Virus genome (UHGV): UHGV-0092003
Length of the DNA stretch: 64,000 nt
Origin: a virus
Strand: one strand, 5' to 3'
Shown: positions 19,586 through 23,366 of the stretch, piece after piece
How positions within the stretch are numbered: the stretch's first letter is position 1
Layout of the letters: the number at the start of each line of letters is the position of its first letter
Made by a program: the position numbers and the translations under genes
Notes under the pieces: generated by a model
The model's database searches: none
The model's input: the letters and a program-made list of their open reading frames with translations, nothing else
Told to the model about the DNA's origin: nothing

Positions 19586-19766
19586 AGGTTGTTTTGGTTC
19601 AGCATTGACAGCCTCAGAAAAAAGCGAGATCTGCGCCCGGTGTGGTGACAGATCTCGCTGTCATGATGAAGCCCGCAAAAATATTGAGGCTATGTTTGGA
19701 AAGTTTGTCGGATTCCCGATTGACAGCATTAAAAATAAAAAAAGAACTACGAAGGAAAGCACATGA
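19575..19766 (+). CDS. Possible small Cys-rich protein (63 aa)
   Basis: ORF overlapping its neighbours; weak support. Confidence 0.2.
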   Translation: MMNKGCFGSALTASEKSEICARCGDRSRCHDEARKNIEAMFGKFVGFPIDSIKNKKRTTKEST

Positions 19767-22135
19767 AGGCATTAATGGTACGCACCGATTTTTCTCTTGG
19801 TGAGTCGGCGTTGAAAGCAAGCCGCGTCGTCGCGGTCGCGAAGGAGTTGGGTTACTCGGCCATTATTAGTGCCGACACAATGAATCTGGCGTCCATCATC
19901 CCATTGCAGCAGTCGGCCGGCGACGACATGGCTGTTATTTGCGGAGTCCGTTTGGTTATTAGTGACAATCCTTTTTATGAAGCAGCTGTTAGAAAAGCCA
20001 AAGAGGAAGGCACTGAGATCCCGGTATGCAAGCTTGGGCGCCCGTACAGCTTCACCGCGCTGATAAAGAACGATGAGGGGTATAAAGATCTGTGTGAACT
20101 GATGACGTTGGGCAACCGCCGCGAGCAGTTTCACTTTTTCCCGCGCATCTCGCTGGAGCAGCTGGCCGAAACGTATTCAAAGGGCAACATCCTTCTGCTG
20201 ACGTCTGATCGCGATAGCATATTTCATCGGCAGGACTTCGTTAAAATCCTGACTACATTGCTGGCGGCTGGTGGTCGTGACAACTTCTACAGCGTCGTGT
20301 ATCCGATTCCTACGCCTCTCTACGATCAGTTGAACATGAAGGCGATGAAGGTGGCTAATGCGCTTAAAATCGCCCCTGTTGCGTTCTATCCAGCTTATTA
20401 CGAGAAAGAAGAGGATGCAGACCTGCGCGACATTGCGCACATGGTAATCAATAACATCAAAACGGATCAGCCATATCGTTTTCACATCCCACACCAGCGC
20501 GACAACTCAATCCAGAACCGCAAGCATTTGTTGGTTCGCTTGATGGAGTTCTCGAAACGCATGGGAGTAGAGGGAATCAGCTCTGCAATGGTTAACGAGA
20601 CTCAGGACGAAATCATTGCGGCGTGCAGCTGGCGCTGGCATGAGATGCCAGTCAGTCTGCCAGTTATGGCGGAAGATGAAGGTGATACGTTGACGCGCAT
20701 GGCGGCGGAAGGTTTGAAGCGTCGGTTAACAACGCTTGAATTTGGCTGGAAGCCACCAGCGGAGCAGTACCCTGTCTACATCAACCGTCTACGTTATGAG
20801 TTGAGTGTTTTGAAAAAGTTGGGGTTCTGCGGCTACTTCCTGATGGTTGAAAATCTACTGTCATGGGCGCGTAAACAGGATATCCCGGTCGGGCCAGGTC
20901 GTGGATCGTCAGCCGGTTCACTTGTTGCGTGGGCGATTGGGATCACCAACATCGACCCGCTACGCCACGGTCTCCTGTTTGAGCGTTTCATCAACCCTGA
21001 ACGTCTGGACTTGCCTGACGCGGATCTGGACTTCAGTCAGGCGCAACGACCTCGCGTACTTGAATATCTCGAAGAGCACTACGGCGAAAAATACGTGGCC
21101 GGCATTCCTAACTTCTCTTATCTGGGTATGGCGTCGGCACTCCGAGACACAGCACGTATCTACGGCGTGTCAACGGAAGATATGGCGGTATCTAAGCAGC
21201 TGAAGCCATTCGATGATGAGGGATTAACTCTCGAAGAGACGCGCGAGCAGCTGGGCGCCCTCGACAAATACGCGAAAGCAAACCCGGAAGCATTCGACGC
21301 CGCGTGCAAACTCCAGTCACTGATGCGCAGCTATGGCAAGCACGCCGCGGGTGTCATCGTTTCTGGCGTACCACTGACTGAGCGAACACCAGTCGAATTA
21401 CGCAACGGGGTGCGCTGTATCGCGTTTGACAAGCGTTTCTGTGAATCAATGGGGCTTATCAAGCTGGACGTGTTAGGGCTGGCTACGCTCGATTTACTGG
21501 CTCTCGCTAAACGCTACATCAAAGAGAACGAGGGGATCGACGTTAACCTCGACGCAATCCCTCTCGATGATAAACGCGTCCTTGAGGGTATGGCGTTGGG
21601 TGAAACAACTGGCGTGTTCCAGTTCGAGTCTGGCGGCATGAGAAACCTGCTTAAAAACCTTGGAAGCGGCATCAAACCAATGTCGTTTGAAATGGCCGTC
21701 GCAACTACCGCGCTATATCGCCCAGGCCCAATGCAGTCCGGCATGATGGATACCTACGTCAGCGTTGCGCGTGGTTATGAGGACGCTCACTCACTTCACC
21801 CAAGCCTTGACGAATTGACCAAAGAAACCAACGGGGTTTTGGTCTATCAGGAACAAATCATGAAAGCGTCGCAGATCCTCGCCGGCTTCTCTCTGTCGGA
21901 AGCAGATATGGTAAGGAAGGCGATTGGTAAAAAAGACATCGAGAAGATGAAAAAGATTGGCGCCGACTTTTCAGATCGTGCGCAGCTTGGTTGGTTGGAA
22001 GTCCAGACTGACGACGGCCAGATTGTCACTGTTCATCGCGCCGCGCTTCATCCGTGCTCTGATGGCAAGAAACGCACTGTCGAGCAAGCCATGGAAGATG
22101 ATGCCGACATTATTGAATTTGACACCTCTAAATAA
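19763..22135 (+). CDS. dnaE: DNA polymerase III alpha (DnaE-type) N-terminal fragment: PHP, palm, thumb and part of the fingers
   Basis: PHP motif DFSLGESA. The catalytic region GPGRGSSAGSLVAWAIGITNIDP...LLFERFINPER..LPDADLDF and YRPGPM are diagnostic of C-family polymerases. Confidence 0.85.
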   Translation: MKALMVRTDFSLGESALKASRVVAVAKELGYSAIISADTMNLASIIPLQQSAGDDMAVICGVRLVISDNPFYEAAVRKAKEEGTEIPVCKLGRPYSFTALIKNDEGYKDLCELMTLGNRREQFHFFPRISLEQLAETYSKGNILLLTSDRDSIFHRQDFVKILTTLLAAGGRDNFYSVVYPIPTPLYDQLNMKAMKVANALKIAPVAFYPAYYEKEEDADLRDIAHMVINNIKTDQPYRFHIPHQRDNSIQNRKHLLVRLMEFSKRMGVEGISSAMVNETQDEIIAACSWRWHEMPVSLPVMAEDEGDTLTRMAAEGLKRRLTTLEFGWKPPAEQYPVYINRLRYELSVLKKLGFCGYFLMVENLLSWARKQDIPVGPGRGSSAGSLVAWAIGITNIDPLRHGLLFERFINPERLDLPDADLDFSQAQRPRVLEYLEEHYGEKYVAGIPNFSYLGMASALRDTARIYGVSTEDMAVSKQLKPFDDEGLTLEETREQLGALDKYAKANPEAFDAACKLQSLMRSYGKHAAGVIVSGVPLTERTPVELRNGVRCIAFDKRFCESMGLIKLDVLGLATLDLLALAKRYIKENEGIDVNLDAIPLDDKRVLEGMALGETTGVFQFESGGMRNLLKNLGSGIKPMSFEMAVATTALYRPGPMQSGMMDTYVSVARGYEDAHSLHPSLDELTKETNGVLVYQEQIMKASQILAGFSLSEADMVRKAIGKKDIEKMKKIGADFSDRAQLGWLEVQTDDGQIVTVHRAALHPCSDGKKRTVEQAMEDDADIIEFDTSK

Positions 22136-22147
22136 TAAGTAAAATGT

Positions 22148-22190
22148 GAAAACAAGTTGTTTTTTAGCTTCTGAAAACAACTTGTTTAAT
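22148..22190. promoter_or_regulatory. Representative pair of the recurrent 13-bp palindrome AAACAA(N)TTGTTT (two copies here in the dnaE spacer); ~15 copies window-wide
   Basis: Other copies lie near 1222, 30290, 32070, 53957, 55455, 57530, 57575, 58545, 58590, 61143, 61435, 62362 and 62893. Confidence 0.55.
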
Positions 22191-22205
22191 AACAAAGGGA
22201 AACAC

Positions 22206-23366
22206 ATGAAGATTACTAAAATCATCTCAGAGAAGCCCGGACTCAGCGAATCAAAAGCAAAAGAGGTATGGGATGCTTTCGAGAAATTCGGGTCGTATGG
22301 CTTTAACAAATCACACGCAGTGGCCTATACCGCAATCAGCTACCAGGCAATGTATCTGAAGACTCACCATCCGGCTGCATTCTTCGCCGCCGCACTGACA
22401 ATTCAGGACGATGAAAAGCATCGTGCAGTTGTAAAGGATGCGCTGGCACGCGGCGTTATCGTGATGCCACCAGACATCAACCTCTCAACTGACCGCATCG
22501 AAATAGTCGAAATGAAGGATGGTCGGACGGCGTTATATGCCCCCTTCTCAGCTGTCAAAGGTTGTTCTGAAAAAGGCAGCTTAGCCATTATGCGTGCTCG
22601 CGAGCGTGTAGGTGGTAAGTTTGAGTCGCGAGCACAATTTAAGGAAGCGATAGAAGCCAGACTCTGCAATATCCGGGTTCAGGAGGCTCTGGAAGCCGTT
22701 GGCGCGTTTGCCAGTATTGAGCCTGGCAGCGAACCAGCGATGGCGGAATCCCGCCGCAAGGCTCAATCAGAGCTGATGGGAAGCCTCATTATCGATGCGG
22801 TAAAAGTGAGTCGCCCGTTCGAGATGAATCCGAAACGCCAGGCTGAAGTGTCAATGTTGATGGAAGAGCTGCGTAAAGAGGTCGGGGTGGGCGAAGATCT
22901 CGTTACCCCGCATATCGGCGTATCGCCAAAAATAATGATTATCCTCGACACAGCAAACGGCAACGATATCAGGACGGGGATCTTCATGGAGAACGGCTAC
23001 GAAGATTTTAAGGCGAAAATGCTCGTTAATGGCGATCTGCGCATGAGCGAGGTGTACGTTACCGGCGTCATTAAGCAGGATAAGAAGTTGCCACTGTCCC
23101 GCGACGCAGAGAACACCTACATCGAGTTTATGAAGAAAGAGCTTGAGCTGGTTAAACCAACCTACGTCCTGACGTGTGGTCGCCTGTCGGCCAGTCTCTT
23201 CAACGACAAAACCAAGGCAACGGATTTGGTCGGACGTAAGGAATACTTTGGCGCAATGGACTTGACCGTATTTTACGGATTCAATCCGGGTATACTTCAC
23301 TTCAGACCGGAAGAAGGCGAGAAACTGGAACTTATTATGGAAGACATTAAGGAGGCATTGTCATGA
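22206..23366 (+). CDS. dnaE: DnaE C-terminal fragment (fingers motif FGSYGFNKSHAVAYTAISYQAMYLKTHHPAAFFAA) fused to a family-4 UDG-like domain
   Basis: Continuation of DnaE after a 70-nt spacer, with its own RBS. The last ~180 aa align by pattern to family-4 uracil-DNA glycosylase (SPKIMIILD...VYVTGVIK...KPTYVLTCGRLSA...) but lack the GEAPG and Fe-S cysteine motifs. Confidence 0.75.
   Translation: MKITKIISEKPGLSESKAKEVWDAFEKFGSYGFNKSHAVAYTAISYQAMYLKTHHPAAFFAAALTIQDDEKHRAVVKDALARGVIVMPPDINLSTDRIEIVEMKDGRTALYAPFSAVKGCSEKGSLAIMRARERVGGKFESRAQFKEAIEARLCNIRVQEALEAVGAFASIEPGSEPAMAESRRKAQSELMGSLIIDAVKVSRPFEMNPKRQAEVSMLMEELRKEVGVGEDLVTPHIGVSPKIMIILDTANGNDIRTGIFMENGYEDFKAKMLVNGDLRMSEVYVTGVIKQDKKLPLSRDAENTYIEFMKKELELVKPTYVLTCGRLSASLFNDKTKATDLVGRKEYFGAMDLTVFYGFNPGILHFRPEEGEKLELIMEDIKEALS

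Follow-up and report, generated by a model that had tools for sequence, protein, structure and literature searches.

The split dnaE locus

We analysed a 64,000-nucleotide (nt) stretch of the virus genome UHGV-0092003 (hereafter the window), in which a DnaE-type replicative DNA polymerase is encoded by two consecutive open reading frames (ORFs) rather than by one. The locus comprises the following features (aa, amino acids).

19763–22135, + strand: ORF1, dnaE part 1, 790 aa, with PHP, palm/NTPase and N-terminal fingers regions followed by a module tail; ends with TAA
21989–22132, + strand: module tail, ORF1 residues 743–790, GWLEVQTDDG...ADIIEFDTSK
22133–22138, + strand: tandem stop codons TAA TAA closing part 1; position kept in L002, L003 and L085
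22136–22205, + strand: intercistronic spacer of 70 nt with no ORF inside; relatives hold homing-endonuclease genes at the same place
22206–23366, + strand: ORF2, dnaE part 2, 386 aa, with a module head, the rest of the fingers, a helix-hairpin-helix domain and a C-terminus resembling uracil-DNA glycosylase (UDG); starts with ATG
22206–22241, + strand: module head MKITKIISEKPG, a predicted beta-strand that would complete a Hint-like remnant
22302–22316, + strand: FNKSH motif, ORF2 residues 33–37
22452–22721, + strand: helix-hairpin-helix domain of ORF2
about 22908–23363, + strand: UDG-like C-terminal domain of ORF2

Pfam profiles assigned PHP, DNA_pol3_alpha (PF07733, E 8e-73) and DNA_pol3_finger (PF17657, E 8e-50, residues 575–740) to ORF1, and HHH_6 (PF14579, E 1e-12) together with a weak UDG-superfamily match to ORF2. 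PHP, PF07733, PF17657 and PF14579 are thereby found in the canonical C-family order, spread across both ORFs. The break lies 32 residues upstream of FNKSH and inside the region of the Pfam finger model, 162 of whose 166 positions are covered within ORF1. An earlier reading made without database searches (the sequence-only reading) had described a DnaE polymerase split into two ORFs with their own starts and a break about 30 residues upstream of FNKSH; the coordinates and profile matches bear out both statements. PF01336 was absent from the Pfam scan, and the C-terminal OB fold and tau-binding domain of cellular DnaE were not found; the UDG-superfamily-like domain ends the polymerase where cellular DnaE carries these two domains. 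The family-4 UDG motifs of ORF2 appear altered by eye, and ORF2 may not be a glycosylase. GenBank names ORF2 uracil-DNA glycosylase. Our assignment implies that ORF2 is mislabelled as "uracil-DNA glycosylase" or "hypothetical" and that ORF1 resembles a truncated dnaE.

In the phage-plasmid SSU5 the polymerase is a single ORF of 1172 aa. Residues 1–778 of ORF1 align to SSU5 residues 1–777 (67% identity) and residues 1–386 of ORF2 to SSU5 residues 784–1171 (62% identity), and the split locus adds only about 12 residues and the spacer to this arrangement. The locus is 100% identical to a Klebsiella pneumoniae plasmid of the SSU5 phage-plasmid group, and a gap-free match of 3604 nt was obtained in all 29 Klebsiella plasmid records that cover it, of which 4 are K. 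oxytoca plasmids at 81% nucleotide identity. In the one K. oxytoca and the one K. pneumoniae record inspected in detail, the ORF coordinates are the same. The ratio of nonsynonymous to synonymous divergence (dN/dS) relative to K. oxytoca was 0.032 in the core of ORF1, 0.06 in its tail and 0.029 in ORF2, at dS values above 1. Other lineages, including L165 and L167, are split at the same residue, the two cistrons are adjacent and co-oriented in all split loci, and roughly a fifth of SSU5-like polymerase sequences are split (by cluster member counts). The split structure occurs in metagenomes as well, and the 29 plasmid records stem from many laboratories. In the comparison with SSU5-like genomes that the sequence-only reading had proposed, the gene is uninterrupted in SSU5 itself, and the split is kept in the 29 Klebsiella plasmids and in other lineages. 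The collinearity of the halves with the intact enzyme, their conservation as two cistrons and the strong purifying selection agree with the split polymerase that was among its suggestions. A frameshift fusion of the two parts was rejected: the ORF2 frame is shut by a TAA at 22140–22142, after the ORF1 stops, and the order of the stops is wrong for it.

A module at the break that resembles DnaE inteins

Together with the ~12 residues that open ORF2 (the head), the tail of ORF1 makes up a module of ~55–60 aa. The sequence-only reading had taken the ORF1 part for a ~48-aa non-DnaE tail. It is indeed foreign to canonical DnaE, but it is not junk: it is homologous to residues ~742–777 of the SSU5 polymerase, which is uninterrupted, and it evolves under purifying selection. 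An intact relative matched Taq pol III alpha with E 5e-121; in the alignment of the intact relative P0197 to the Taq enzyme, residues 315–739 correspond to 363–788 and residues 792–953 to 789–946. Since Taq residues 788 and 789 are contiguous, the ~52-aa segment of P0197 is an insertion. No counterpart of the module was found in Taq and E. coli DnaE, in 12 more distant intact polymerases of the DnaE-UDG family or in 110 other DnaE loci.

Among 1.8 billion representative proteins, the module was found at the extreme C-terminus of about ten clusters, formed by proteins of 756–790 aa, and only one intact cluster carries it. In trees built on the N-terminal 680 columns (200 bootstrap replicates), the split, module-bearing L107 pairs with the intact, module-less L113 (76% identical) and the split, module-bearing L092 with the intact, module-less L093 (62% identical), each in 200 of 200 replicates; between L107 and L092 the identity is only 45%. 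Within the enterobacterial clade, intact-with-module and split forms interleave. This distribution indicates that the split and the module act as a mobile unit, as judged from the trees.

When a profile of the module was compared with PDB sequences, DnaE inteins were matched over positions 10–50 (7qil, E 6.6e-5; Npu and Ssp, 1.5–2.6e-3). Designed TIM barrels were matched too, only on a generic helix-strand stretch (positions 28–50). Alignment with hhalign to the Npu DnaE intein gave a probability of 86% and E 4.6e-6, with tail positions 7–51 corresponding to intein residues 57–101. The last residue of ORF1 aligns with residue 101 of the 102-residue intein N-fragment, and the break therefore coincides with the canonical split site of inteins, a position that intein endonucleases occupy as well. 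An independent hidden Markov model (HMM) built from 30 diverse part-1 C-termini scored 27.6 bits against Npu and 22.1 bits against Ssp, compared with 14.3 bits for the best of 9000 composition-matched shuffles. An HMM of tail plus head scored 27.4 bits against each of the two inteins, with 16.9 bits for the best shuffle; the head contributed nothing detectable to this score and showed no sequence signal towards the intein C-fragment. AlphaFold2 modelled the module with a confidence (predicted local distance difference test, pLDDT) of 82–91 inside the intact enzyme and 83 alone, and the top-ranking Foldseek matches were DnaE inteins for the PDB and phage proteins with inteins for BFVD. The closest non-polymerase relative of the module is a metagenomic split-intein N-fragment in L172 1-1201 (JGI 3300063034), in which block B TREH is kept. 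The end of that N-fragment is followed by a stop codon and then directly by a free-standing gene of the LAGLIDADG type with an N-terminal helix-turn-helix.

The elements needed for splicing were compared block by block. Block A with its N-terminal Cys or Ser is absent, intein residues 1–54 are missing from the module, and the DnaE helix F..xAxxG is immediately followed by the module. Block B (TxxH) was not found: the aligned residues are HRAA(L) here and, in relatives, HRAEHF, so that the Thr is not kept and the His occurs in some only. Blocks F and G, the terminal Asn and the +1 Cys, Ser or Thr are absent as well, and DnaE sequence resumes only ~12 residues after the start of ORF2. Since all splicing blocks are missing, splicing chemistry is not expected; the sequence-only reading, which had seen no intein blocks, was right for blocks A, B, F and G. 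Taken together, the partial Hint fold of the models and the sequence similarity indicate that the module is a split-intein remnant and not a functional intein.

The spacer and the contents of the gap in relatives

The spacer between the two cistrons carries several repeated motifs and predicted RNA structures.

22135–22143: half-site ATAAGTAAA, the left half of the genome-wide inverted repeat ATAAGTAAA-N1-3-TTTACTTAT
22144–22207, + strand: predicted outer helix, 22144–22148 paired with 22203–22207, enclosing the hairpin and the ribosome-binding site
22150–22162: palindrome AAACAAGTTGTTT
22150–22187, + strand: 15-bp hairpin formed by the two palindromes; predicted fold –17.3 kcal/mol, z –2.6
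22175–22187: palindrome AAACAACTTGTTT, the reverse complement of AAACAAGTTGTTT and not an identical copy
22194–22208, + strand: ribosome-binding/start box of part 2, AAAGGGAAACACATG, found before many other genes in the window too

The half-site ATAAGTAAA was matched 11 times in the window against 0.38 expected, and ATAAGTAAA-N1-3-TTTACTTAT occurs between genes at 3887, 4909, 7993, 9902, 18258, 40670, 45670, 45811, 51121 and 52174. The palindrome family AAACAANTTGTTT had 16 matches against 0.41 expected; further copies lie, for example, at 1225, 30293, 32069, 47801, 53968, 57527, 58539, 58590, 61141, 61434 and 62363. Elsewhere in the window AAACAANTTGTTT occurs in two contexts, either ~19 nt upstream of GATAATAA, a –10-like box, or directly before the ribosome-binding box, and it looks like a candidate operator of a plasmid regulator. 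With up to 3 mismatches allowed, the AAAGGGAAACACATG box had 21 matches where 2.2 were expected. Since ATAAGTAAA, AAACAANTTGTTT and AAAGGGAAACACATG are all strongly over-represented and AAACAANTTGTTT stands in these two contexts elsewhere, ORF2 carries the ordinary gene-start signals of the plasmid. The 70-nt spacer with a half copy of a palindrome and the consensus initiation region of part 2, both noted in the sequence-only reading, were recovered, as were its two palindromes, except that these are not identical copies.

Both palindromes and the hairpin are kept in K. oxytoca (z –3.1), where the linker or loop between the palindromes has diverged. The predicted outer helix includes the A and U of the ORF2 start codon, and its K. 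oxytoca counterpart has one more pair. The spacers of L165 and L167, which hold no endonuclease gene, are unrelated in sequence and each contain a strong hairpin of 12–13 bp (z about –2); endonuclease-containing junctions have no such hairpins. Since the predicted RNA helix masks the AUG, translation of ORF2 is possibly coupled to termination of ORF1, and translational coupling or mRNA stabilisation through the predicted hairpin and helix would be a reasonable role for these structures. A regulatory spacer, as the sequence-only reading had called it, is plausible, given its motifs and the conserved hairpin. A consensus scan detected no sigma-70-type promoter or terminator on the + strand of the spacer; the ATAATAA-N11-palindrome spacing is like that of promoter-type copies elsewhere in the window, but lacks a –35 partner. 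An intron or other RNA element in the gap was considered and rejected, as Rfam gave nothing at E up to 1 over 21700–22500; a group I or group II intron is disfavoured also by the tail evolving as protein.

No free-standing homing-endonuclease gene lies between the halves in the 70-nt gap of the window, and such genes are present at the same site in relatives. The gaps of other split loci contain the following.

L004 (Enterobacter asburiae plasmid): 244-aa HNH_3+NUMOD3 gene; part 1 ends with ...NADITSFDI and a stop, part 2 starts with MKITGVV...
25 further SSU5-like plasmids: L004-type HNH_3+NUMOD3 gene at at least 88% identity
L169 (large E. coli/Klebsiella cluster): a different gene, NUMOD4+HNH_3
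IMG/VR relatives: HNH genes in L092 and L105, a NUMOD4-type gene in L107 and a decayed endonuclease in L111
L104 (also an IMG/VR relative), 5800–5990: 56-aa ORF
L171, 5889–7262: three ORFs of 172, 95 and 184 aa without Pfam hits
L165, 6358–6441: 84 nt only
L167, 6359–6430: 72 nt only

Filled gaps in relatives measure 0.7–1.4 kb and hold expressed-looking genes, and part 2 always has its own ribosome-binding site and an MK(I/V) start. An MK(I/V) start at the same position is shared by all stand-alone part-2 proteins, including those with identity as low as 31%. L104 and L171 indicate that the split site can hold cargo other than endonucleases. Over the rest of the gene L004 and SSU5 share 97–100% identity, but a tract flanking the endonuclease gene, ~370 nt on its upstream and ~100 nt on its downstream side, is only 54–81% identical to SSU5. 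The tract is 92–99% identical to L086, and the backbones of L004 and L086 differ. We read the tract as a signature of homing with co-conversion. The first palindrome of the spacer, with its upstream ATAAG element, is similar to the sequence that precedes the HNH gene of L004, and the second palindrome belongs to the ORF2 start cassette. This make-up of the spacer fits a clean deletion of an endonuclease ORF, short of proof.

Origin of the break and comparison with known systems

We consider it likely that the locus encodes a functional two-cistron SSU5-type polymerase that was fractured inside a non-splicing split-intein remnant at an endonuclease-prone site. According to this proposal, an endonuclease-associated split intein, or a cassette with only its endonuclease-proximal parts, would have entered the polymerase fingers. 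Of the intein, approximately 45 residues from the end of the N-fragment would survive as the tail, and the first strand beyond the split as the head; the N-terminal splicing block, TxxH and the whole C-terminal splicing region would have been lost. Free-standing endonuclease cassettes would move between plasmids, dragging flanking polymerase sequence with them, and endonuclease genes would arrive, decay and leave in the gap. In the Klebsiella lineage the endonuclease gene was probably deleted, leaving the 70-nt spacer with two gene-start palindromes and a strong ribosome-binding site. With the gap open, two unspliced proteins would be made, ORF2 being translated from its own start, and would reassemble non-covalently. 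The tail strand ADIIEFD is expected to pair with the head strand KITKIIS in a long antiparallel arrangement, which would help to hold the broken fingers together; the halves are thus probably held non-covalently by a dead split-intein remnant. A scar from an excised intein or homing endonuclease, as considered in the sequence-only reading, comes near to this proposal, with endonuclease genes in the gap of relatives; what it did not recognise is that the tail itself appears to be the intein remnant.

Several observations weigh against this interpretation. The Foldseek E-values are not significant on their own, no Hint or intein model in Pfam or NCBIfam matched the module, the gp41-1 intein was not matched by the tail HMM, and no complete intein was found at the exact module site among 130 DnaE loci. 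That both proteins are made and associate is predicted from sequence. The Klebsiella lineage may have lost an endonuclease gene or may never have had one, and the intact SSU5-type genes may be ancestral or may be secondary fusions. A bolder version, which we put forward only tentatively and hold to be somewhat improbable, is that tail, gap and head form a mobile homing-endonuclease cassette that carries two endonuclease-proximal pieces of a dead intein as a non-covalent zipper. Loss of the endonuclease would then leave a permanently two-subunit polymerase, and intact SSU5-type genes would possibly be re-fusions. If true, such an intein-zipper cassette would be a kind of mobile unit not yet described.

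The intein likeness could instead be convergent or made by the predictor, the module being an ordinary lineage-specific SH3-like beta insertion whose tolerant surface loop is targeted by endonucleases. The failure of curated intein HMMs to detect the module, weak SH3-like Myosin_N matches (E 0.0025–0.1), the matches of the profile to designed TIM barrels and the commonness of intact module-bearing enzymes all speak for this explanation, which we nevertheless regard as unlikely. A different possibility is that ORF1 and ORF2 do separate jobs, the former as a stand-alone truncated polymerase and the latter as a helix-hairpin-helix/UDG-like repair or accessory protein, as the GenBank name of ORF2 and its own start signals would suggest. 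However, the break falls within the finger-model region, upstream of the conserved FNKSH, intact and split forms with the same domain order alternate among close relatives, and the cistrons are always adjacent and co-oriented, which makes such a division of labour very improbable.

There is even less reason to expect that the halves are joined into one chain, whether through trans-splicing by a non-canonical intein of unusually small size or through ribosomes bypassing the 70-nt gap. An intein-related module split at the intein split site, a stable hairpin in the gap behind a stop codon, and the precedent of bypass in T4 gene 60, reportedly beside a homing-endonuclease cassette, would be in keeping with it. 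Yet the module offers no N-terminal Cys or Ser, terminal Asn or +1 nucleophile, the TAA at 22140–22142 closes the ORF2 frame and bars a simple frameshift fusion, and in relatives the gap measures 0.7–1.4 kb and contains genes, with part 2 always having its own start signals. The frameshift pseudogene that the sequence-only reading had listed, or a sequencing or assembly error, would account for a stop codon in a gene that is intact in SSU5. The layout recurs in the 29 plasmid records, the 81% identical K. oxytoca plasmids included, and in metagenomes, other lineages are split likewise, and dN/dS is 0.03 on both sides of the break with dS above 1, so that practically no chance is left for either.

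The proposed fracture within an intein remnant has several parallels. In the fractured genes of Dassa et al. 2009 (PMC2677866), a split intein and a free-standing homing endonuclease lie between adjacent gene halves, and the authors' model includes later loss of the endonuclease. Our locus shares with these genes the adjacent, co-oriented halves of a replication enzyme (DnaE is among their hosts), the break at the intein split site, the intercistronic hairpin and, in relatives, the endonuclease gene in the gap. In the inteins described there, the six Hint motifs and the five catalytic residues are all kept, and the N-parts measure 88–105 aa and the C-parts 33–54 aa (PMC2677866), whereas here ~45 + ~12 aa are left with no catalytic element. 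Their endonucleases are GIY-YIG or Vsr-like, in contrast to the HNH_3 types of our relatives and the lack of any in the window. Intein-less genes in pieces are also cited in PMC2677866, namely nrdA of phage Aeh1, split by the HNH gene mobE, and the T4-like gp43 polymerase, made as 43A and 43B. In architecture our locus is like both; unlike them, it has a conserved Hint remnant at the break that travels with the split. In both of these cases, as proposed for our locus, an essential gene of replication or nucleotide metabolism was broken by endonuclease insertion, the halves reassemble non-covalently and part 2 has its own start.

Cyanobacterial DnaE-n/DnaE-c belongs to the same enzyme family and is broken in the same fingers domain, and the tail is most similar to residues 57–101 of the Npu and Ssp inteins. 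The cyanobacterial halves are encoded at distant loci and are ligated by trans-splicing. Their intein sits directly before FNKSH. In our locus the insertion precedes FNKSH by 32 residues, a 70-nt gap separates the halves and splicing chemistry is lacking; the sequence-only reading was therefore correct in placing the break near the cyanobacterial split-intein site, which is nevertheless not the same site. The fingers of DNA polymerase III alpha (PolIII alpha) are a known intein hot spot: Novikova et al. 2016 (PMC4760082) place the insertion points a–d and g of active inteins within 75 residues of the fingers. The module, judged by its distance of 32 residues upstream of FNKSH, probably lies close to that stretch. 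Insertion point a presumably lies directly before FNKSH.

In T4 gene 39/60, reportedly treated by Bonocora and colleagues in 2011, mobA and a 50-nt bypass element are said to be involved. As proposed for our locus, an endonuclease gene and adjacent sequence split a replication-related gene, and extra sequence of the cassette keeps the gene working. The T4 gene is rescued by translational bypass; the likely rescue here is protein-protein association through the intein remnant.

A literature search, with most subscription journals outside its coverage, retrieved no prior account of a split polymerase in SSU5 or phage-plasmids or of a natural non-splicing intein remnant at a gene break. The architecture is known from fractured genes and genes in pieces; the locus stands apart from the former by its lack of a functional intein and from the latter by the proposed intein remnant right where the gene is broken. 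SSU5-like phage-plasmids are often found in clinical Klebsiella, E. coli, Salmonella and Enterobacter and offer a natural series in one enzyme, from module-less intact and module-bearing intact forms to split forms with either endonuclease type, with a decayed endonuclease or with an empty gap. This series makes it possible to test how endonucleases break essential genes without host death, how split inteins originate and decay, and whether intein fragments are kept for binding alone. The findings are of interest mainly to researchers working on inteins, homing endonucleases and phage replication; for protein engineers, a natural heterodimerising Hint fragment this small (~45 + 12 aa) would be of interest as well.

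Some further observations concern the relatives and the neighbouring genes. In L111 3500–4400 (IMG/VR 3300014684_000008), part 1 is broken again near residue ~380 by an ORF of ~300 aa with CxxC...CxxC motifs, which may be another endonuclease or an intein-like insertion. Two SSU5-type DnaE proteins, P0172 (1075 aa) and P0201 (950 aa), show a Pfam RecA match (PF00154) in place of the helix-hairpin-helix domain and may be chimeras or carry another insertion. Upstream of dnaE, synteny is conserved, with a 63-aa Cys-rich ORF (19575–19766) whose end overlaps the dnaE start, an AAA_5 ATPase gene (18335–19585) and, further upstream, a gene for a CobT-like protein. The CobT-like and AAA_5 genes carry a "porphyrin biosynthesis" annotation in SSU5.

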